Shown here: piece by piece, positions 10,255 through 59,439 of the stretch
How the letters are laid out: the number at the start of each line of letters is the position of its first letter
Position numbering within the stretch: position 1 is the stretch's first letter
Assembly (NCBI GenBank): GCA_963743615.1
Contig: CAVUQF010000003.1
Span: forward strand, 60,999-124,998
Direction of reading: 5' to 3'
DNA length: 64,000 nucleotides
From: an uncultured Nanoarchaeota archaeon
GTDB lineage: Archaea > Nanobdellota > Nanobdellia > Pacearchaeales > GW2011-AR1
The notes under the pieces: model-generated
The model's input: only the letters and a program-made list of their open reading frames with translations
Databases searched by the model: none
Told to the model about the DNA's origin: nothing
Translations under genes and position numbers: made by a program

Positions 10255-11499
10255 TTAGAAGGAACCTGCAGGATACATTTGCCAAGAATTTCCTCCAGGG
10301 CATTCATAAGTGCCCCAACTTGAGGGGTCTGTTGCTTGCCAAATGCAATAATAGGAGTATACTGCACACCCAACTGGTCCTTTTGAGCTATATCCATTAG
10401 AAATTCCCCAATAAGTTCCATCGTTCTTGCAATATTCATATGTAACTCCGTTATTTGTTACACTACTTGTGCCGAAGGGGCAATTGGAGCAATCTGATCC
10501 AGACCATCCTTGACAATTCCCTGAGCCATCACAAGTTTCATCTGTACCGCAAGTTGTTCCTCTTGATAAATCGGAACTGGCACTTCCACTACATGTTCCA
10601 TCGCATCCGATTGTTTTTCCACCACAAATATCGCTTCCACAACTTTGTCCTAGATTAGAAGCGCAACATGAATATCCTTCATTAAGATCACCTTCTGGAG
10701 GGGGGAAATCATAAGAATTACCCCCTGCACAAGTCTTTCCACTTCCGCATGTTCCGCAGTTCAGAGTTCCTCCGCATCCATCACTAGACGTTCCACATGT
10801 ATCAACTAACTCTGAGCAGGTGTAACATGAACTAACACAATTCCCTGAGCCGTCACAGGTTGCATCTGTACCGCAACTTGTTCCTACTGATACATAAGAA
10901 GTTTCAGTACATGACCCATCACAAGCTGTTTTTCCATTGGTACAGGCATTTACCTGACAAGGGTTTCCCATATTAAAACTACAACAATTACCTCCCGCAT
11001 TACAACTCATCCCACTTCCAGTGCAAGTTCCACAAGTTCCTCCACATCCATCACTTCCACAATTTTTTCCAGTGCAGTCCGGAACACAGCAATAAGTTTT
11101 GCTATTGATTGCTTGTTGCAGACTTTCTCCCGATGCTAAATTAATTTCTGTAGCCAGATGACTTGGATTTGGAATGTTTACACTAGTGTAAGTTAATGGA
11201 CTAGAAGGATTGGGACAAAGCCTGTCTGGTGATTGTAGAGCTGAAAGAAGAGTCATTTCTCCATCCTTCACAGAAACCCAAATTTGGCTTGCATCATGTC
11301 CGGGATCAGGAGCAGTTCCTGCGGTATAAACATGAGTTTGTCCTAGAGTGCTAGATGTTATAGAGTTCAAATTTGTTGAAACTCCATCAATGCCCACAAC
11401 GACTTGATCTGCGGGGTGAGTTCCAGATGCGCTAATAAAAGTTATAAAGACAGAGACTAGCACTAAAGAAATTATCAGTATCCCCCTTTTATGGCTCAT
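10255..11499 (-). CDS. Secreted Cys/Gly/Thr-rich repetitive protein (414 aa)
   Basis: Signal peptide, then an N-terminal domain of roughly 150 aa, then more than 60 Cys in repeated modules (CGSDGCGGTCGTC, GTSCGTDATCDGSGNC, GTTCGTDETCDGSGNC). Confidence 0.6.
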   Translation of the reverse strand: MSHKRGILIISLVLVSVFITFISASGTHPADQVVVGIDGVSTNLNSITSSTLGQTHVYTAGTAPDPGHDASQIWVSVKDGEMTLLSALQSPDRLCPNPSSPLTYTSVNIPNPSHLATEINLASGESLQQAINSKTYCCVPDCTGKNCGSDGCGGTCGTCTGSGMSCNAGGNCCSFNMGNPCQVNACTNGKTACDGSCTETSYVSVGTSCGTDATCDGSGNCVSSCYTCSELVDTCGTSSDGCGGTLNCGTCGSGKTCAGGNSYDFPPPEGDLNEGYSCCASNLGQSCGSDICGGKTIGCDGTCSGSASSDLSRGTTCGTDETCDGSGNCQGWSGSDCSNCPFGTSSVTNNGVTYEYCKNDGTYWGISNGYSSKGPVGCAVYSYYCIWQATDPSSWGTYECPGGNSWQMYPAGSF

Positions 11500-14403: not shown

Positions 14404-14525
14404 GAGCCTATAGCTCAGCCAGGTTAGAGCACCGCTCTTATATGATTGCAGTTCATATGAACTGCATCTCTCCCAGATATGTCTAAGAGAGGCGGGGGTC
14501 CACGGTTCAAATCCGTGTAGGCTCA
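14404..14525 (+). tRNA. tRNA-Ile (anticodon UAU) with a 47-nt intron at the canonical 37/38 position
   Basis: Acceptor GAGCCTA/TAGGCTC, D-arm GCTC-AGCCAGGTTA-GAGC, anticodon stem CCGCT/GGCGG, loop C-T-TAT-A with the intron at 14443-14489, T-arm CACGG-TTCAAAT-CCGTG. Confidence 0.7.
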
Positions 14526-21394: not shown

Positions 21395-23446
21395 TTGGTA
21401 AAAATGAGGAAGATAATTTTTAGTTTGGTAATTGTATTTTCGTTGGTGTTCTTTTCTCATTCGGTTTTAGCTCTTCCTTCTTTTAATTCTCCACTTAATA
21501 GCATATACAACCTTGGAGATTTTGCTAATACTTCTTTGACTATTGATCAAGGCGGCAATTTTTCGGTGAATTTAATTTGTAATGGTGTTACCGAAAGGTT
21601 GAGTCCTCCCATCTTTGCCAGTCTGCCATCTATGAATATGCCCCCTATTCCTATACAGTTACAATTGACTTCTAGTCTCGTTGGGGCTAATTCCACTTCA
21701 TGCCAGTTGGAAGCTTCATTAAATGGGAACGCTATTTCTTCAAATGTTTTTCAAGTTTCAAACTTAGTTCAGGTTACAGTTTCTTCCAATGATACAGAGT
21801 TTAAGCCAGGAGATCAAGTTTCTATTCAAGGTGATGCTGTGAAAGTAAATGGACAGAGTCTTAATGGCATCGTTGGTTTGAATGTTTTAGGTCCAGGAAA
21901 CACTTCAATCTATCAAATTTCTAACTCGGTAAGTAACGGATATTTCTCATTTAATTTCTCTCTTCCTTCGGAGATTGCTGCAGGGCAGTATTTTGTTGTT
22001 TTGAATGCATATGAAACAGATCCATCTGGAGCTGAAACGAATGTTGGCTATTATAATTTTAATATACTTGTGGATCAAGTACCAACTAGCCTTAATTTGG
22101 TTCCTCAGAATACTGTTCAGAGCATCTCTCCCGGGCAAGGATACAGTGTTGAAGCCATTTTGTACGACCAGACTGGACAGGAAATGAATTCACTTGTCAA
22201 TTTCACGATAAATGAGACGAACGGGGGAATTATGCGTCAACAGGTAAGCACGGGGCAGTTTATTGAGATTCCTGTTAGTTATAATGATGCTCCGGGCACG
22301 TGGACAGTTTTTGCAAAGTCTAATAATCTTGATTCCCAGTTGAGCTTCGGGGTCTTAGAAAATAAAAATATTACCATCTCTGTACTGAATAGCACACTTT
22401 TAGTAACTAATGAAGGCAATGTTCCTTACACTGACCCAATTACAGTTAATTTTGGAAATCAATCTCTTGTCTTCAATGTTTCGCTAGGGGTCGGGCAGAG
22501 TCAAAAATATGTTTTAAATGCACCTAATGGAGATTACAATGTTGAAGTATCTAGTCTTGGAAGCAATTTATATTCTGGAGATCTATTCCTTACTGGAAAT
22601 GTTGTGAATGTCCAGCAGGCTTCGAAAGGAGTAGTAAGTTTTGTTCAATATCCCCTTGTTTGGATAGTTCTTATAATTATTTTGGTTGTGTTGATCTTCT
22701 TTTTCCTCAAGAAGTTGTATAAGAAGAAGTTCATGAGAAAGATAAACTTGAATAAGAGTTTTAAGTTAAGGGATGGAATTGTGATTAGCGAGGGGAAAGA
22801 TACTAGTTCAAATGGTCCTAAGTTTGTGAACAGCAGGAATGTTGCTGAACTTTCGCTATCTTTACAGGGGACTAAACACGGTTCAACTATTGTCTGCTTG
22901 GGAATAAGAAATTTTGCCGAGATAAAATCTGGGAAAGGAGGGGTAAACGAGACTATGAATAGGATAAGATCCATTTCAGACGAATTCAAGGCAGCGGTTT
23001 ACGAAAATGGGGCAAATATCTTCCTGATCTTTTCTCCAATGAAGACTAAATCTCAAAATAACGATTTAACTGCAATAAAGGCTGCAGAGCAGATTCAGAG
23101 AGTTTTACAAGACCACAACAAATTACTAAAGCAGAAAATAGACTTTGGAATTTCCATACATTATGGGATGATTGTTGCAAAGTTAGGAGTGAACAGCATG
23201 AAATTCATGAGTTTGGGCAATGTGATTTCAACAGCAAAGAAGCTTGCAGCCATCTCTCAAGGGCAAGTTTTCCTTAGTAAAGAAGTTAGGGATAGAATTG
23301 CCACAGATGTTAAGACTGAAATGCATTCCAGCGGAGATATGAGTTACTACACTCTTCTTGAAATAAGAGATAGAGAGAAAAATCAGAAATTCATCAAAGA
23401 TTTCATGAATAAAATGGATAAAGAAGAGAAAGAGAACAAATCTTAA
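21395..23446 (+). CDS. Surface protein (683 aa) with an N-glycosylation-rich ectodomain, one TM helix, and a cytoplasmic nucleotide-cyclase (CHD/GGDEF palm)-like domain that is probably catalytically degenerate
   Basis: Signal peptide; many N-x-S/T sequons; TM 'LVWIVLIIILVVLIFFFL'. The C-terminal 'STIVCLGIRNFAEI ... IDFGISIHYGMIVAKLGVNSMKFMSLGNVISTAKKLAAISQGQVFLSKEV' is collinear with the class III cyclase consensus but lacks the metal-binding Asp residues. Confidence 0.5.
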   Translation: MVKMRKIIFSLVIVFSLVFFSHSVLALPSFNSPLNSIYNLGDFANTSLTIDQGGNFSVNLICNGVTERLSPPIFASLPSMNMPPIPIQLQLTSSLVGANSTSCQLEASLNGNAISSNVFQVSNLVQVTVSSNDTEFKPGDQVSIQGDAVKVNGQSLNGIVGLNVLGPGNTSIYQISNSVSNGYFSFNFSLPSEIAAGQYFVVLNAYETDPSGAETNVGYYNFNILVDQVPTSLNLVPQNTVQSISPGQGYSVEAILYDQTGQEMNSLVNFTINETNGGIMRQQVSTGQFIEIPVSYNDAPGTWTVFAKSNNLDSQLSFGVLENKNITISVLNSTLLVTNEGNVPYTDPITVNFGNQSLVFNVSLGVGQSQKYVLNAPNGDYNVEVSSLGSNLYSGDLFLTGNVVNVQQASKGVVSFVQYPLVWIVLIIILVVLIFFFLKKLYKKKFMRKINLNKSFKLRDGIVISEGKDTSSNGPKFVNSRNVAELSLSLQGTKHGSTIVCLGIRNFAEIKSGKGGVNETMNRIRSISDEFKAAVYENGANIFLIFSPMKTKSQNNDLTAIKAAEQIQRVLQDHNKLLKQKIDFGISIHYGMIVAKLGVNSMKFMSLGNVISTAKKLAAISQGQVFLSKEVRDRIATDVKTEMHSSGDMSYYTLLEIRDREKNQKFIKDFMNKMDKEEKENKS

Positions 23447-55342: not shown

Positions 55343-55609
55343 TTATTTGACAAGATTTTGTATAAGCTCAATGTGATCAGCTACTTCTTTTCCTTTCTTT
55401 GTAAGCTTTATCAGCTTTACTCGCCCCTTTTTCTCAAACAGAACTAGCCCTAATTTTTCAAGGGTTTGCAAAATCTTTACAGCGTGGCTGTAAGTGCAGT
55501 CAACTTCTTTTGCAAGAATGCTGCCATATCTCATCCTTGTATTCTTCTTCAAGAAAACCAGCATCAAGGCAGGCTTTCTCCTGAAAAAAATGTCGAAATT
55601 GTCTTTCAT
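55343..55609 (-). CDS. Winged-helix transcription regulator (small, MarR/PadR-like)
   Basis: 'GSILAKEVDCTYSHAVKILQTLEKLGLV' HTH followed by a wing; divergent from the SGNH gene pair. Confidence 0.5.
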   Translation of the reverse strand: MKDNFDIFFRRKPALMLVFLKKNTRMRYGSILAKEVDCTYSHAVKILQTLEKLGLVLFEKKGRVKLIKLTKKGKEVADHIELIQNLVK

Positions 55610-55789
55610 TTTGAGATATGTTTTTTAATGTATATATCCAGATGGTAGGGTCCTTTTAAATCTTTCGAACTATTCGGCTTTGTAAATTAAGTCGATAATT
55701 TAAGGGACTTTTTTTACAGAAGTTACTTTATTTACAGAGCTAAAATATTAAATAAATTTAAATAATTTGGGCATATTTTAGGTACGAAA

Positions 55790-57133
55790 ATGAGAAAAGA
55801 AATGGCCAAAAAAGAAGTGAGCAAAAAACAGAAAGCAATGAGATATTTTCTCTGGACCATTCTGGGAGTTGTTGCAATAATAGGGATGATTGCAGCACAG
55901 ACTATAATTTCTGATCAGCAAGTCCAGACTGATTACATAAATGCTTCAAATATAAGTTATAATGGCGGGCAACTGGGTTTAAATCCAAGCAATGGGGTTC
56001 TCATTGGAGATAGCACAACAGCTGCTTATGTAGGTCAGAATAATATTGCATATTATCTTCTCACAAATGCAGATACTTTAATGGGAACAACTATCACGAC
56101 GGATGCAGTTCCTGGGCAAACAATTCAGCAGCAGCAGGCGGTATGGGACGCAGATGCAAACAAGGCAAATTATGATTGGATAATTGTCATGGTTGGATTA
56201 AATGACTGCATAAATTATAGTGATACTTCTGCCAATATCCTCTCAAGATATCAGACCTTTATCAATGATATTGATTCAAGCAAGAAATCAAGTGCTATCG
56301 TTATAATCGCAACAATGACACCTGCAAGACAGCGTTTTTATGATTTATACGGCTCGGTAAATGGATCGATAGATTATCAATTGTGGCTTGATGTGAATAA
56401 TGGAATAATGGGCAACGGGGCAAATGCTATACAAAATGTTTCTTACAGAATAGATGAGCATACTATTGCATTAAATGACGGAAATGGAAGTCTTGCTTCT
56501 TTCTATAATGTAAGCGATAATGTTCACGAGAACAATCTTGGAAGGCAGTTAGTAGCAAACGCATTCAGGAAAACATTAAACCAGGCAGGTTATTTAACTA
56601 ATGTCCCAAGTGAGATTATCGATAATTATTTCGGGAACATAAACAATACGATCTACCTTAAAGGGGGATGGTTAAATTACTTGCAGATTCAATCAAATTC
56701 AAGTGCAGGAACAGAACCAAGCGGAGATATTATTCAGCTTCGTGTCGGAAATTGGAATACTGGAGGTAACTCTGGAATCTCGATAAGCAGACCTGCAAAT
56801 TACAGGACTTCTGGATTGTATTTCCAGACGGGAACAACTAATGATTGGTTTATAGGAACTCCTTACAATGGAGGTGCTGCAAGCACTTCTTTGACAATAG
56901 GAAGCTCTGCAGCCATTTCGGCTGAAAAGATGATAATAACAAATTCAGGAGATGTTGGAATAAATACAATCTCTCCGAATGAGACTCTATCAATAAATGG
57001 AATGATGCAGTTAAATGAGACCTTATCTCCCCCATCATGCACCGCAACTTCCAACGGGAGCATTGCAAGAAATGCAACTGGTTTAATATATTGCAATCTC
57101 GTAGGTAATTGGGTTTATCTGTATACAGGATAA
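55790..57133 (+). CDS. Membrane-anchored extracellular SGNH/GDSL hydrolase with a fibre-like C-terminal region and a Cys-containing terminal knob (paralog 1)
   Basis: Signal anchor; SGNH blocks 'LIGDSTT', 'GLNDC' and 'DNVHEN'; C-terminal 'SGDVGINTISPNETLSINGMMQLN' and 'PPSCTATSNGSIARNATGLIYCNLVGNWVYL'. Confidence 0.6.
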   Translation: MRKEMAKKEVSKKQKAMRYFLWTILGVVAIIGMIAAQTIISDQQVQTDYINASNISYNGGQLGLNPSNGVLIGDSTTAAYVGQNNIAYYLLTNADTLMGTTITTDAVPGQTIQQQQAVWDADANKANYDWIIVMVGLNDCINYSDTSANILSRYQTFINDIDSSKKSSAIVIIATMTPARQRFYDLYGSVNGSIDYQLWLDVNNGIMGNGANAIQNVSYRIDEHTIALNDGNGSLASFYNVSDNVHENNLGRQLVANAFRKTLNQAGYLTNVPSEIIDNYFGNINNTIYLKGGWLNYLQIQSNSSAGTEPSGDIIQLRVGNWNTGGNSGISISRPANYRTSGLYFQTGTTNDWFIGTPYNGGAASTSLTIGSSAAISAEKMIITNSGDVGINTISPNETLSINGMMQLNETLSPPSCTATSNGSIARNATGLIYCNLVGNWVYLYTG

Positions 57134-57137
57134 AAAA

Positions 57138-58364
57138 ATGGATGAAATAAAAACTAAGCATAAAGTATTAAGATATTCTCTCTTTACATTATTTGGAATT
57201 CTTTTGCTGGTTGTAGGAGTTTATGCTACCACAATAATCTCGGATCAGCAAACTTCTACTCCTTATATAAATGCTTCAAATATCTCATGGATTACGAATA
57301 ATAACAAAGAAGTTGTATTCGAGGGCGATAGCATTACTGATTATGTCAATAAGCCAAACTCGACATGGAGCTTGAATGTTTCTAACTCTTCCTTGTTTGC
57401 TGATGCAGTTTTTTATAATGTTGCAATGACTGGAGATACTGTCTGTAATATGACGACAGAATATGCTTCTCAAGTCCATCCTCTCGCTCCAAAGAATAAT
57501 CAGACAAATGCGTACTTCTTTTTATGGGCCGGAACAAATGATCTTTATTATGATTCAAACTCTTCAACCATTCTCTCTTGCCTTGAGATAGAATGGGCTA
57601 TGGCTCGTGCAGATGGATTTAAAGTCGTTGCGGTTACAATCACAAATAGATCGGGAGTATATATCTTAAATGGAACACAAGAGAGCAATAGAACTGCATT
57701 GAACGGAGGAATAATAGCAGCTTCTTCCCAATATGATTATTTGATAAGAGCCGATTTGATTCTTCCAGATCCAACAAACACAACCTACTTTGTTGATGGA
57801 TTGCATCCAACTCCCGCAGGTTCTTATCTTATAGCTTCGAATTTTGTCAATAACTTTTATTCTAATCCTTATAATGAACTGAATAACTGGGAGGGAAATC
57901 TAGGAATTGGAACAACAACTCCCCCAACTGCATTAACTATAGTTGCCCCAGAAAGTTCAACCAATGGAATATTAAAGTTGCAAGTTCAGAATGGTCAGCC
58001 ATTCGATTTTGCAGGAATTTCTTTCTTTGCAAAAAGTCAATCTCCGACAGCAGGATCTCTTAATTGGATGATTTCAACAAATTATAACCAATATGGAGAG
58101 CTTAATTTTCTTAGAAGCACCAGTTCATCAACAAATCCTACAATAAGCACTTTAGATCTTATGAGTAGCGGAAATGTTGGAGTGAATACAACAGCTCCAA
58201 TTTCAACTTTGGAAGTAAATGGAAATGCAACAATAGACCAGCTTATGAATCTCTCTGTGATGAATATTCCCCCATGTGGAGCTTCGACTAATGGAAGCAT
58301 AGCTCGAAATTCAAGTGGAGATTATGTATGCGGAGCAAACGGAGTATGGAAGTTCTTGGGATAA
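57138..58364 (+). CDS. Membrane-anchored extracellular SGNH/GDSL hydrolase with a fibre-like C-terminal region (paralog 2)
   Basis: Shares with paralog 1 the N-terminal 'TIISDQQ..T.YINASNIS' and the C-terminal 'SGNVGVNTTAPISTLEVNGN' and 'PPCGASTNGSIARNSSGDYVCGANGVWKFL'. SGNH blocks 'FEGDSIT', 'GTNDL' and 'DGLHPT'. Confidence 0.6.
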   Translation: MDEIKTKHKVLRYSLFTLFGILLLVVGVYATTIISDQQTSTPYINASNISWITNNNKEVVFEGDSITDYVNKPNSTWSLNVSNSSLFADAVFYNVAMTGDTVCNMTTEYASQVHPLAPKNNQTNAYFFLWAGTNDLYYDSNSSTILSCLEIEWAMARADGFKVVAVTITNRSGVYILNGTQESNRTALNGGIIAASSQYDYLIRADLILPDPTNTTYFVDGLHPTPAGSYLIASNFVNNFYSNPYNELNNWEGNLGIGTTTPPTALTIVAPESSTNGILKLQVQNGQPFDFAGISFFAKSQSPTAGSLNWMISTNYNQYGELNFLRSTSSSTNPTISTLDLMSSGNVGVNTTAPISTLEVNGNATIDQLMNLSVMNIPPCGASTNGSIARNSSGDYVCGANGVWKFLG

Positions 58365-58365
58365 G

Positions 58366-59439
58366 ATGGAAACTAATTTAAAAAAAAAGACTGAACTGAT
58401 TTTTCTTTTAGCTTTTGCCTGCCTGATAATTCCTCTTGCTTCTGCCGTAACTTTAAGTTCTGGGGTATTCTTTGTAAGTGGGTTAAATTCTAGCATAACT
58501 ATTAATTTTCCCGTGGCTTTTGATTTATTAAACATCTCTAACGACTCTATAGTTTTTTACAATCTTAGTTATGTTCATCCTTCTAGCTGTAATGGGCAAT
58601 CTTCATTTTATAATGTTTATAGTTATGCTACTTCAAATCAAAATACTACTCTAGACCAGGTATTGCCTAGTATATCTTGTGTTGTGACCGCTAATAGCTC
58701 TTCTTCGGGGTCTGGATCAGGGGTAACTAATTATCCTCTGCTTACAACAGTTAATTCTTCCCAATCCAACGAAGCAAATTTTTCTTTAAGTACGTCCGTG
58801 TTACAAGTATTACCAATAATAAATGAGAGCCAACTTACAACAATAGAATTAGGTAATTTTTCTGGGAGTTTGACTCGAGTGGATATTATCACAAACTATA
58901 CTGTTTCAAATGTTTCTGTAAATATTTCACAAGTAAGTATAATATATCCCAATTTAGAGATAAATATTTCCGGATTTAATTATCAGTCCTTCAAAATTAC
59001 AACTCTTGGGATAAATGATTCATTAATAAAAAGTGTAACGCTGGATTTTCGTGTGAACAAAAGTTGGATTATCGTTAATAAGCTGAATTTTTCTAAGGTA
59101 ATACTACTTAGGAATACGGGGGGTGTCAAATGGATGCAATTGCAGACGATCTTTAATTCAAATGATTCTAACTATTATTATTATAATGCTACCTCTCCTG
59201 GATTTTCAAGTTATACCATATTTGCTCCATTAATTAATCCGGTATTTATTGGAGGCAGCGGGAATCGTCTGAATAATAACCTGGGAGTTATTGTCTCTAT
59301 TTTGGCAATAGTTTTTATAATTATTTGGGAGATTTTACAAATGAGGAAAAGGATATTATTCGGCAGTTCTCACAGCTTTCTTAAATTTATTAAAAAAAGA
59401 CATTATAAAAAGTTTTCTTTGAGAAAGAAGTGGAAGTAA
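58366..59439 (+). CDS. N-glycosylation-rich surface protein with signal peptide and a C-terminal TM anchor plus basic tail
   Basis: Starts 'METNLKKKTELIFLLAFACLIIPLASA'; many N-x-S/T sequons; C-terminal 'GVIVSILAIVFIIIWEIL' followed by K/R-rich residues. Confidence 0.55.
   Translation: METNLKKKTELIFLLAFACLIIPLASAVTLSSGVFFVSGLNSSITINFPVAFDLLNISNDSIVFYNLSYVHPSSCNGQSSFYNVYSYATSNQNTTLDQVLPSISCVVTANSSSSGSGSGVTNYPLLTTVNSSQSNEANFSLSTSVLQVLPIINESQLTTIELGNFSGSLTRVDIITNYTVSNVSVNISQVSIIYPNLEINISGFNYQSFKITTLGINDSLIKSVTLDFRVNKSWIIVNKLNFSKVILLRNTGGVKWMQLQTIFNSNDSNYYYYNATSPGFSSYTIFAPLINPVFIGGSGNRLNNNLGVIVSILAIVFIIIWEILQMRKRILFGSSHSFLKFIKKRHYKKFSLRKKWK

Follow-up and report, generated by a model that had tools for sequence, protein, structure and literature searches.

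Three adjacent genes in a 64,000-nucleotide stretch of archaeal DNA (the whole of which is referred to here as the window) encode two mosaic esterase-fibre proteins and a membrane-anchored glycoprotein. We interpret them as a modular system that displays enzymes for glycan de-O-acetylation on the surface of a DPANN archaeon, itself probably a relative of Pacearchaeota or Woesearchaeota. The activity would probably be directed at another cell, and we give this interpretation about an even chance of being correct. The products of genes A and B would be exported, N-glycosylated mosaics with a common scaffold, predicted to run from an export signal through a 20-residue N-peptide, a payload and one trimeric beta-helix unit to a C-terminal cap. 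Their payloads are two different putative SGNH carbohydrate esterases, catalytically complete as judged from their motifs, each with apparent close kin in phage tail modules. The features of the locus are listed below (MAT, mosaic adhesive trimer).

55343-55609, minus strand: winged-helix (wHTH) gene, 88 aa, divergent from gene A
55702-55737, no strand: two tandem 18-nt direct repeats, AAGGGACTTTTTTTACAG and AAGTTACTTTATTTACAG, 83% identical, between the wHTH gene and gene A
55790-57133, plus strand: gene A, ORF of 447 aa, predicted secreted SGNH-A esterase with fibre unit and Cys cap
55790-55897, plus strand: A, N-terminal segment with a basic start and 18-19 hydrophobic residues, ending I-A-A before Q; signal peptide or signal anchor
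55898-55960, plus strand: A, conserved N-peptide QTIISDQQVQTDYINASNISY, with two sequons; 16/20 residues the same in B
55985-56587, plus strand: A, SGNH hydrolase domain (Ser75, Gly109, Asn138, Asp243, His246)
56627-57019, plus strand: A, fibre unit, one copy, of the MAT and phage tail-fibre beta-helix type
57020-57130, plus strand: A, C-terminal Cys cap (Cys417, Cys435, Trp441)
57138-58364, plus strand: gene B, ORF of 408 aa, predicted secreted SGNH-B esterase with fibre unit and Cys cap
57138-57230, plus strand: B, N-terminal hydrophobic segment ending V-Y-A before T; signal peptide or signal anchor
57231-57293, plus strand: B, conserved N-peptide TIISDQQTSTPYINASNISWI, common to A
57303-57860, plus strand: B, SGNH hydrolase domain (Ser65, Gly99, Asn134, Asp220, His223)
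57885-58253, plus strand: B, fibre unit, one complete copy between GNLGIGT (253) and GNVGVNT (345)
58254-58361, plus strand: B, C-terminal Cys cap (Cys380, Cys398, Trp404)
58366-59439, plus strand: gene 3, 357 aa from ATG 58366, predicted N-glycosylated surface protein of the PGF-pre-PGF type, membrane-anchored at its C-terminus
58486-58680, plus strand: gene 3, conserved N-domain (FYNLSYVHPSSC ... LPSISC) with a Cys pair
58846-59223, plus strand: gene 3, PGF-pre-PGF domain (NCBIfam match, residues 161-286)
59281-59349, plus strand: gene 3, transmembrane helix near the C-terminus, with a tail rich in Lys and Arg after it

Every feature of the initial annotation was found at the coordinates assigned to it there. 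Genes A, B and 3 form one operon, since the gaps between them are only 4 bp (A/B) and 1 bp (B/3); the longest ORF of gene 3 begins at GTG 58315, within gene B, and the ATG one base past the stop codon of B yields a product with a signal-like segment at its start. Genes A and B are intact and real: among independent contigs from NCBI, ENA and Illumina-based Logan assemblies, the exact A protein is present on 6 and the exact B protein on 7, Illumina assemblies included. At the DNA level, moreover, A and B share just one repeat, a 53-nt stretch (77% identity) coding for the N-peptide. They are not an assembly duplication, in agreement with the initial annotation, to which they did not look like one. 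The locus is chromosomal and vertically kept, as supported by its housekeeping flanks (Lhr, TopA, MCM, PolB and aminoacyl-tRNA synthetases) and by the proximity of the module to RadA and NDK in three genomes.

Upstream of A there is indeed a divergent winged-helix gene, as had been noted (Pfam HTH_27 at 23.8 bits, above the cut-off of 22.2, with weaker matches to many other wHTH families), but the idea of a dedicated regulator gains little from comparison. In three loci a small DNA-binding gene lies divergently upstream, but no two of them are of one family: the window has the HTH_27-type gene, the Pacearchaeota locus L002 has an ArsR-type wHTH gene in the equivalent place, and the third product, of 64 aa, is AbrB-like by eye only. 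Similarity between the 88-aa protein and its ArsR-type counterpart is limited to 25 aa (E 4e-4). The tandem 18-nt repeats are a possible operator, in an AT-rich region where chance could account for them.

An extracellular location for the proteins of the block is indicated by three properties taken together: their N-terminal hydrophobic segments (in A, Kyte-Doolittle windows exceed 1.6 from residues 16-24 onward, with small residues at -3/-1), an excess of N-x-S/T sequons, and charged residues that are rarer than in cytoplasmic neighbours. Sequons number 19 in gene 3 and 17 in B, against 7.9 +/- 2.3 and 9.0 +/- 2.4 in shuffled sequence; A shows less of an excess (13 versus 8.7 +/- 2.6), and the counts of cytoplasmic neighbours are at the expected level or lower.

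Both A and B carry the SGNH core proposed for them, with Pfam Lipase_GDSL_2 scores above the cut-off of 32.9 bits (38.6 and 39.6 bits, respectively) and a complete catalytic set (GDS 73-75, GLND 136-139 and DNVH 243-246 in A; GDS 63-65, GTND 132-135 and DGLH 220-223 in B); all four catalytic blocks are intact in the two proteins and conserved in family alignments. AlphaFold2 (AF2) models the domain of B (residues 61-240) with block-mean pLDDT of 84-99, the greater part exceeding 90, and that of A mostly at 70-94, falling to 58-67 near residues 221-250. The A domain matches the acetyl-xylan esterase Axe2 (E 2e-3), the top PDB matches of the B model in Foldseek include carbohydrate esterases of characterised function, acetyl-xylan esterases among them (7toh, E 1e-9), and the B domain matches the PHROG family 'lipase' (E 4e-14).

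The two proteins align over their full length at 27% identity (BLASTP E 1e-25), far above chance, and the similarity is unevenly distributed: 80% identity in the N-peptide, 43% in the Cys cap and 26% in the esterase core. The earlier description of A and B as tandem paralogues thus suits their ends, whereas the cores belong to two different subfamilies. The N-terminal motif described as TIISDQQ.QT.YINASNIS is shared except for the Q of its.QT. part, giving the pattern TIISDQQ-x-x-T-x-YINASNIS with a variable stretch that is VQTD in A and TSTP in B. Among relatives traced to a genome, the closest to each core are different phage tail-fibre proteins: for A, P0002 (43% identity over the SGNH domain), located in a siphophage tail module with tail genes before it and a lysozyme gene shortly after; for B, the homologue P0011 is flanked by tape-measure/tail genes and an integrase. 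Other close esterase homologues, outside those traced to genomes, are short lipoprotein-like esterases. On this sequence evidence, A and B are mosaics on a common scaffold and not simple duplicates.

Profile matches bear out the suggestion that the Gly/Thr/Asn-rich C-terminal region is fibre-like, and identify it by homology as a single copy of the trimeric beta-helix unit that makes up phage tail fibres and the MAT fibres of Bdellovibrio. With A and B as its only members, a profile matched the MAT structures of Bd2133 (8OND, E 9.3e-10), Bd3182 (E 1.6e-3) and Bd1334 (E 3.4e-3), a wider profile matched five MAT structures (E 4e-22 to 8.5e-5), and B alone matched PHROG tail fibre 18345 (E 2.6e-5) and, at E 0.06, PDB 8OJN (Bd3182). 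Of the two GxVGIGT-type motifs in A, the first is degenerate and the second reads GDVGINT (residue 387); P0158, a full-length orthologue of A (41% identity, E 6e-96), has the first motif intact (YLGIGT). As monomers, the units reach block-mean pLDDT of only 28-45 (A) and 42-62 (B) in AF2. A profile spanning the whole protein, the esterase half as well as the rest, had matches in 72,691 representative proteins, the top library matches being giant proteins with 12-56 matched stretches each, mostly fibre unit; by its matches, the unit belongs to a very large superfamily. The shared Cys module is likewise present, with Cys pairs 417/435 and 380/398. Across eight aligned caps P, C, C and W are invariant, and the two conserved Cys of this module of roughly 30 residues probably form a disulfide; AF2 gives the cap three short strands in B (pLDDT 82-86) and short beta-strands in A (block-mean pLDDT about 52-74). 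In contrast to the variable tips of MAT fibres, the cap is constant among paralogues within one genome, so a docking or folding role fits it better than target recognition.

Gene 3 matches the PGF_pre_PGF model TIGR04213 at 52.4 bits (cut-off 28, E 5.5e-14), and hydropathy windows reach 2.6 over its transmembrane helix (residues 306-328); with its many sequons, the protein is decorated and C-terminally anchored as first described. Its N-domain is the best-conserved block in the gene 3 family alignment, and using that domain as a search pattern recovered four further loci. In all, at least seven related loci, Pacearchaeota and Nanoarchaeota (both DPANN) among them, have a two-gene module, in which the first gene encodes signal and N-peptide, variable payload, fibre unit and Cys cap, and the second an anchored glycoprotein. 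The order of scaffold protein followed by gene 3-like protein holds in the window, L002, L013-17, L018, L025, L026, L027 and L028. On the common N-terminus and cap are found SGNH-A (P0158), SGNH-B (P0007, P0008) and a five-fold propeller-like repeat (L027); the 345-aa scaffold protein of L002, whose N-terminus is 44% identical to that of B over 41 aa, has fibre repeats only, without a payload. P0010 and P0013 are fusions, gene 3-type proteins with an SGNH-B domain inserted immediately behind the signal peptide, and gene 3 is 36% identical to the C-terminal 330 aa of P0010 (E 2e-36). The recurrent pairing and the fusions point to a functional link between the scaffold proteins and gene 3 and strengthen the view of a single cell-surface module. 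In a comparison of seven loci, conservation of the gene 3 N-domain is high and the caps are of at least two types, with no co-variation between the two that would support docking. In a related population the homologous genes are frame-disrupted, which implies that the enzymes are dispensable at least part of the time.

We propose that the fibres trimerise and stand on the cell surface, with the gene 3 protein most likely serving as the pedestal that displays them, and that the displayed esterases would strip O-acetyl (or similar acyl) groups off surface glycans. The likeliest target would be the envelope of another cell contacted by the archaeon, in a manner resembling that of phage tail-fibre esterases, which bind and edit their own receptor. 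An episymbiont-host reading of the esterases is a plausible conjecture, and fibre-mounted esterases are plausible candidates for how DPANN symbiont-type archaea handle the surfaces of other cells.

The glycans edited might instead be the archaeon's own: the esterases could, for example, de-O-acetylate the N-glycans of the gene 3 protein or S-layer, fibre and cap only keeping the enzyme within the envelope. Such self-maintenance would agree with the constant adjacency of gene 3, whose product is richer in sequons than any other in the block, with the esterases built into the glycoproteins P0010 and P0013, with an N-peptide and cap that are constant per genome, as expected for binding a self component, and with fold relatives such as PatB that handle cell-wall O-acetylation. 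Yet both cores are nearest to phage tail-fibre proteins that work on foreign surfaces, the exchange of payloads (propeller-like or none) resembles an adhesin repertoire more than a housekeeping enzyme, and the frame-disrupted copies speak against an essential envelope role; we regard this explanation as possible but unlikely. Reversed chemistry on an unchanged architecture has a slim chance at best: SGNH enzymes include O-acyltransferases, so that sequence alone leaves the direction of the reaction unfixed, and the domains might acylate surface glycans as PatB, OatA and AlgX do. The significant fold matches include structures of PatB, and SGNH transferases have the same catalytic blocks (PMC9487903), but the block encodes no membrane-bound acyl-donor partner comparable to PatA, the OatA N-domain or an MBOAT, and the closest relatives are phage fibre proteins of the esterase type.

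We consider it improbable that A and B are ordinary secreted enzymes of the acetyl-xylan-esterase type, releasing acetate or unmasking environmental polysaccharides for nutrition, with the fibre unit serving to space the enzyme or to bind carbohydrate as a stalk. Acetyl-xylan esterases are indeed among the solved structures that match best in sequence and fold; however, neither the block nor its neighbourhood contains glycoside hydrolases or sugar transporters, a trimeric phage/MAT fibre unit with an anchored partner is unlike free polysaccharide-degrading enzymes, and, of the homologues whose genome could be traced, the closest are fibre proteins of phages. The phage relatives of both cores and of the fibre unit, and a GC content slightly raised in the block (0.374 against about 0.345), could also point to an integrated archaeal virus, of which the block would be a receptor-binding module left behind or domesticated. 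Against such an origin, which we hold to be very improbable, stand the housekeeping flanks, a locus without integrase, capsid, portal or terminase genes, export signals in place of virion-attachment domains, the similar RadA/NDK chromosomal setting in three genomes, and a partner that is a typically archaeal PGF-pre-PGF protein.

Display of esterases on surface fibres, the reading we prefer, has several partial parallels. The SGNH fold is carried by many phage tail fibre or spike proteins, many structural relatives of A and B are annotated as tail fibre or spike esterases, and deacetylating phage tail fibres have been described (PMC9569702, PMC8471582). These resemble A and B in fusing an esterase to a trimeric fibre module, with core identities that reach 35-43%, but the phage proteins (P0002, P0011) begin with a virion-attachment domain and lie in tail gene modules, whereas A and B begin with an export signal and have housekeeping neighbours and a membrane glycoprotein partner. 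The MAT fibres of Bdellovibrio bacteriovorus (Bd2133, Bd3182, Bd1334 and Bd2439) are intertwined trimers on the predator surface (Caulton et al. 2024, PMC10769870). Like A and B they contain the homologous beta-helix unit between GxVGIGTxxP...L.V.G motifs; they are exported, surface-displayed (a prediction for A and B) and mosaic, with one constant part for presentation, and their owner lives on other cells, as is plausible for the archaeon. They differ in size (600-1,500 aa with many units, against one unit), in the conserved, beta-rich N-domain, about 130 aa long, that follows their signal peptide in place of a 20-aa N-peptide, and in a variable part that is a C-terminal tip (S74, TNF-like, lectin or beta-sandwich) and not an internal enzyme; only A and B have a small constant C-terminal cap, no S74, an archaeal host and a dedicated anchored partner gene. 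Gene 3 resembles archaeal PGF-pre-PGF / PGF-CTERM glycoproteins (TIGR04213) in its model match, sequon richness and C-terminal anchor; it differs in lacking a detectable PGF-CTERM sorting signal (no match to the PGF-CTERM model at E <= 1), having a plain transmembrane helix and basic tail, and in its Cys-pair N-domain, which is conserved and specific to the small gene 3 family. Influenza C HEF and coronavirus HE place an SGNH-fold O-acetyl esterase on a trimeric surface spike that recognises and edits its glycan receptor; their lectin and fusion domains are entirely different, and the likeness is one of principle only. The initial annotation held that the block matches no described system, which is too broad for its parts, as SGNH-on-fibre proteins are common in phages, the fibre unit belongs to a very large superfamily and PGF-pre-PGF is a curated family. 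We found no description in the literature of SGNH, fibre unit and PGF-pre-PGF together in DPANN archaea.

Four genes occupy the interval in question: a divergently transcribed winged-helix gene (wHTH), two genes for putatively exported SGNH proteins (A and B), and a gene for an anchored glycoprotein (gene 3).

Genes of the block (window positions)
55343-55609, minus strand: wHTH gene, 88 aa, divergent
55790-57133, plus strand: gene A, open reading frame of 447 aa
57138-58364, plus strand: gene B, open reading frame of 408 aa
58366-59439, plus strand: gene 3, 357 aa, with a sensible start at the ATG at 58366

The spacers measure 4 bp between A and B and 1 bp between B and gene 3, and therefore the three genes almost certainly form a single transcript. 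The region between wHTH and A is 180 bp long and contains two tandem 18-nt direct repeats, 83% identical (55702-55737), and an TTTAAATA element at 55757-55764, about 26 nt before the ATG of gene A. The repeats may be an operator and TTTAAATA a TATA box, or both may be chance occurrences in AT-rich DNA.

The window is archaeal chromosome. It has a GC content of about 34% and carries MCM, a family-B DNA polymerase, Cdc48, an archaea-specific ThrRS editing domain, PheRS, Lhr and TopA; a noisier, longer assembly of the same genome also reaches RadA, Nre and TFS. A 122-nt tRNA gene, evidently intron-containing (14404-14525, plus strand), fits an archaeal origin, and the taxonomic assignment is based on such marker genes together with the named relatives. 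The flanks of A and B consist of Lhr, a metallophosphoesterase, TopA and similar genes, and a provirus is rejected on the gene content of the window and its surroundings. Nor are A and B an assembly duplicate or an artefact: they share a single DNA repeat (53 nt, 77% identity), and the exact proteins are found on 6-7 independent contigs, Illumina-based and long-read assemblies included. In the second assembly of this genome (ERZ25039472 contig_32807), compared with window positions 57128-57548, gene B has a 1-nt deletion and many other genes are split; these errors explain why P0001 and P0006, the database cluster representatives derived from it, are A and B in shortened or frame-shifted form. 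Every motif quoted in the initial annotation is present, A and B align from end to end (27% identity, E 1e-25), and that observation as a whole is confirmed.

The constant parts of A/B-type proteins are their two ends.

Amino acid identity between A and B, by region
20-residue N-peptide after the hydrophobic segment: 80%
C-terminal Cys cap: 43%
Fibre unit: 29%
Esterase core: 26%

In a related population, one A-type protein (P0158) and two B-type proteins (P0007, P0008) have a near-identical N-terminus and an identical cap, ending in NNSGLYYCNSTQSWTLIVAG. The cap, a Cys-containing module already noticed as common to A and B and upheld by its own 43% identity, has an invariant Pro, Cys, Cys and Trp in the alignment and is modelled by AF2 in B as three short strands (pLDDT 82-86). 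Neither the cap nor the N-peptide had a family match in Pfam, PHROG or NCBIfam, and an IlvGEDA-leader match over the start of the cap (E 0.27) was rejected as noise. A homology search with the cap only, by a word-index method that is probably insensitive for a 50-aa query, returned three fragments, one of them named Nanoarchaeota archaeon. At the other end, A and B have a hydrophobic segment that ends in IAA|Q and VYA|T, respectively, where the -3 and -1 positions are small, consistent with cleavage at these sites, and only about 20-25 residues lie between this segment and the SGNH domain.

A and B have all the sequence and fold features of bona fide SGNH hydrolases, and the corresponding activity is predicted. 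PF13472 (Lipase_GDSL_2) scores 38.6 bits in A and 39.6 bits in B (cut-off 32.9), and the SGNH core recognised in the initial annotation is intact in all four blocks: block I, GDS at 73-75 in A and 63-65 in B, with the nucleophiles Ser75 and Ser65; block II, Gly109 and Gly99; block III, GLND at 136-139 in A (Asn138) and GTND at 132-135 in B (Asn134); and block V, DxxH, with D243/H246 in A and D220/H223 in B. The block II Gly and the block III GxND together constitute the oxyanion hole. In an alignment of 38 sequences G132 is invariant, and the nucleophilic Ser, N134 and D135 are each at least 90% conserved. Residues 61-240 reach block-mean pLDDT values of 84-99 in the AF2 model of B, which finds 120 PDB matches at E <= 1e-3, of which the top ones listed are SGNH/GDSL-type esterases; the best include characterised carbohydrate esterases (acetyl-xylan esterases and a sialate esterase) and uncharacterised GDSL-family structures. 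The acetyl-xylan esterase Axe2 is matched by the sequence of A alone.

By motif, both domains are catalytically complete, and they fall into two subfamilies, SGNH-A and SGNH-B. The tandem genes, first described as paralogous, are not closely so in their esterase cores, which are 26% identical and retrieve separate families. Searching with A among 5.8 billion sequences yielded only four relatives other than itself, all with phage-fibre-like N-termini; the best (P0002, 43% identity) follows tail genes and shortly precedes a lysozyme gene on a siphophage-like contig. For B, 32 relatives were recovered by sequence search, and P0011 (35% identity over 79% of the query) is encoded between tape-measure/tail genes and an integrase. 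Among the best hits in a library of viral structures are proteins with the annotation tail-fibre esterase, tail spike or minor tail protein, and a scan of viral contigs added only the phage already recovered and an unrelated phage lipoprotein esterase. Phage tail fibres with deacetylating activity are on record (PMC9569702, PMC8471582).

The C-terminal region, described earlier as fibre-like, contains a unit that proves homologous by profile to the fibre unit of phages and of the mosaic adhesive trimer (MAT) fibres of Bdellovibrio. A profile built solely on the C-terminal half of each of the two proteins matches the MAT proteins Bd2133 (8OND, E 9.3e-10), Bd3182 (8OJN, 1.6e-3) and Bd1334 (8OML, 3.4e-3), and when widened by six relatives it matches five MAT structures (E 4e-22 to 8.5e-5). 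The fibre region of B by itself gives weak matches to 8OJN and to a PHROG tail-fibre family; weak family matches within the region are DUF7265 (E 8e-4) and ComC_SSD (E 0.01). There is one copy of the unit in A and one in B, the latter (residues 252-366) framed by GNLGIGT and GNVGVNT; the first boundary motif is decayed in A and intact in its orthologue P0158. An exhaustive HMMER search with a full-length profile, esterase half included, gave matches at E <= 1e-3 to 72,691 representative proteins; the highest-ranking are 2-8 kaa long with 12-56 matched stretches each, mostly of the fibre unit, which shows the unit to be, as judged by homology, a very large superfamily. MAT fibres are intertwined trimeric beta-helices, seen on the predator surface and bearing phage-like S74 or other tips (PMC10769870). 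The fibre regions of A and B are modelled with low confidence by AF2 as monomers, as expected for an intertwined trimer, and A and B would trimerise through this unit.

Gene 3 encodes a PGF-pre-PGF protein without PGF-CTERM. It matches TIGR04213 over residues 161-286 (52.4 bits, cut-off 28, E 5.5e-14) and has a signal-like N-terminus, an N-domain with a conserved Cys pair, and a C-terminal TM helix with a Lys/Arg tail. NCBIfam contains no PGF-CTERM model matching it at E <= 1, and the PGF tripeptide is absent before the TM helix. With 19 sequons against 7.9 +/- 2.3 expected, its initial description as a glycosylated surface protein with a C-terminal anchor stands. The putative regulator fared less evenly: the wHTH protein exceeds the Pfam HTH_27 cut-off (23.8 against 22.2 bits), but the upstream DNA-binding gene is conserved in position only, being of HTH_27 type in the window and of ArsR type on a Pacearchaeota contig (L002), while at a further locus (L013) the upstream gene encodes 64 aa and is AbrB-like by eye only.

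Co-occurrence of these genes, proposed at first as a check, is found in related genomes, where a scaffold protein and a gene 3-like protein recur as a pair and also as fusions. In two relatives of B (P0010 and P0013), SGNH-B lies within a gene 3-type protein, immediately behind its signal peptide; P0010, from a MAG named Candidatus Pacearchaeota archaeon, is 36% identical to gene 3 (E 2e-36). Upstream of the fusion, L002 encodes a 345-aa protein with a similar N-terminus, two fibre units, a Cys-containing C-terminus and no esterase, which is preceded by the divergent ArsR-type wHTH gene. The pattern of the gene 3 N-domain was found at four further metagenomic loci, each with a scaffold protein immediately upstream, and L013-L017 and L018 represent two additional loci.

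Scaffold proteins upstream of gene 3-like proteins
L025: cap-ending fragment
L026: fibre-only protein
L027: five-fold propeller-like repeat as payload
L028: unassigned middle domain; gene 3 shortened

Given this recurrence, the conserved unit is a two-gene module. Its first gene encodes an export signal and N-peptide, a variable payload, the fibre unit and the Cys cap, and its second a signal, the Cys-pair N-domain, PGF-pre-PGF and a TM anchor. As read from these proteins, the payload is swapped on a constant scaffold. The linkage to the anchored glycoprotein is tight and recurrent, and includes a natural fusion. Across the few loci at hand, no co-variation between cap type and gene 3 N-domain was visible. 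A genome-collection scan with the SGNH-B family found three archaeal MAGs only; because the loci in two of them, both Woesearchaeota, consist of a single gene (signal, SGNH-B and a different Cys-ended C-terminal domain) with neither partner nor regulator, the full block is not universal.

Several relatives depart from this plan in detail. At L027:1571-2824 the N-terminus and Cys cap are the same and the esterase is replaced by a fivefold repeat with units of some 42 aa (GITQDLRDNSFWI.D..DDFIYHVSSLGVNQSDGFSASFAG), which has only weak matches to the propeller-type Phytase-like and Arylesterase families. P0009 (614 aa) and P0070 (844 aa) have SGNH-B embedded between several fibre units and end in a PDFVFEK(D/N)Y...KHLP...coiled-coil domain in place of the Cys cap. 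Homologues of gene B in the related population have a broken reading frame in the esterase half, while the window copies are intact. At L013:2267-3485 (also L014-L017), in five Illumina samples, a break at SGNH block II leaves pieces of 104 + 297 aa; a second paralogue at L018:63-1339 and in L019 has an out-of-frame (AG)17 directly after the ATG, restorable by (AG)15 or (AG)18, and a T8 tract with a +1 shift. Phase variation through simple-sequence repeats, pseudogenisation and assembly error could each account for these disruptions.

Two other genes in the window have surface-type features. One (10255-11499, minus strand) encodes what may be a further secreted or surface protein, of 414 aa, with a signal-like N-terminus, 40 cysteines in repeated CGxDGCGGxCGxC-type motifs, zero N-x-S/T sequons and nothing matching in Pfam. 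The other (21395-23446, plus strand; 683 aa) may be a surface receptor: a signal peptide and an MG2/Ig-like ectodomain with 15 sequons are followed by a TM helix and by some 230 aa of cytoplasmic domain without a Pfam match.

The proteins of the block carry predicted features of export and glycosylation, and a mechanism can be proposed in which the cap closes or registers the trimer formed by A or B, much as the foldon of T4 fibritin is a small C-terminal trimerisation cap, and the gene 3 protein holds A and B at the cell surface. We propose docking at the gene 3 N-domain because the fusions join the payload to the N-terminal end of that domain, the end that a docked fibre and cap would reach. 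So displayed, A and B would remove O-acyl groups from surface glycans. The initial interpretation is supported in part, with host recognition being what we infer. Our first-ranked reading, with about an even chance of being right, is that A and B edit or recognise another cell's surface, because the nearest relatives of both cores, phage receptor-binding proteins, act on foreign surfaces, and because DPANN lineages of this kind are commonly seen as depending on other cells. That the archaeon remodels its own glycans ranks second, as a distinctly less probable account. It is less likely that A and B scavenge nutrients, a reading to which the acetyl-xylan esterases among the fold matches would point, or that their SGNH domains are acyltransferases, as might be suggested by the peptidoglycan O-acetyltransferase PatB, which comes lower in the fold-match list of B than the esterases. 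That the block is a viral remnant is also less likely: its esterases have phage relatives, but its flanks are housekeeping genes.

Action on another cell can be extended to a more elaborate proposal, which we consider rather unlikely in its entirety: Pacearchaeota/Woesearchaeota-type DPANN would possess a dedicated host-interaction apparatus built of short trimeric fibres of phage/MAT stock. Payloads (either type of esterase, a propeller-like domain, or nothing) would be swapped on the constant scaffold, through which the fibres would dock on a PGF-pre-PGF membrane pedestal, and the esterases would recognise and de-O-acetylate host envelope glycans. Simple-sequence repeats may turn the fibres on and off, a step suggested by the (AG)17 and T8 frame disruptions in relatives, and the host may even be a bacterium, considered here because both cores show bacteriophage kinship.

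To our knowledge, how uncultured aquatic DPANN (Pacearchaeota, Woesearchaeota) recognise and hold other cells is largely unknown. The block offers concrete, testable candidates for such recognition, as a comparative lead and not as a categorically new system. A and B are small, expressible and assayable on defined acetylated glycans, and their substrate, if identified, would give a clue to the host. For fibre display, a simple hypothesis follows from the natural fusions and from the conserved association with an anchored glycoprotein. If A and B were ordinary envelope-maintenance esterases, the result would be a modest gain in annotation for a set of unnamed proteins.

The fibre module is common to the two best-understood systems of foreign-surface recognition, phage receptor-binding proteins and Bdellovibrio MAT adhesins, and A and B would, by analogy, work like phage tail-fibre esterases and MAT adhesins. 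With MAT proteins they share the beta-helix/prism unit homologous to those of Bd2133 and Bd3182. However, the published MAT proteins have a 130-aa N-domain where A and B have some 20-25 residues between hydrophobic segment and SGNH domain, and a variable C-terminal tip or S74 where A and B have a 30-aa Cys cap common to the paralogues; no Pfam match to Peptidase_S74 was found in A or B at E <= 1. Because they lack both this N-domain and such a tip, A and B should not be filed as MAT proteins, and we count the constancy of the cap, in contrast to the variable MAT tips, and the absence of visible co-variation between cap type and gene 3 N-domain as weaknesses of the favoured reading, action on another cell. 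Phage tail fibres are characterised by a tail-module setting and an N-terminal virion-attachment domain, both found in the phage relatives P0002 and P0011, whereas A and B have housekeeping flanks and an export signal; lacking the tail-module context and the virion-attachment domain, they do not belong with the phage tail fibres. No functional name is attached to any close relative that was recovered, and in the searchable literature on DPANN and the papers citing MAT fibres no account of the module was found, in DPANN or other archaea. The MAT/phage-fibre module is thereby extended to archaeal cellular genomes, where it carries an internal enzyme and not a tip domain. Its building blocks are familiar; what is new is their arrangement, an internal swappable payload between constant ends with a dedicated anchored partner, and the archaeal host in which it is found.
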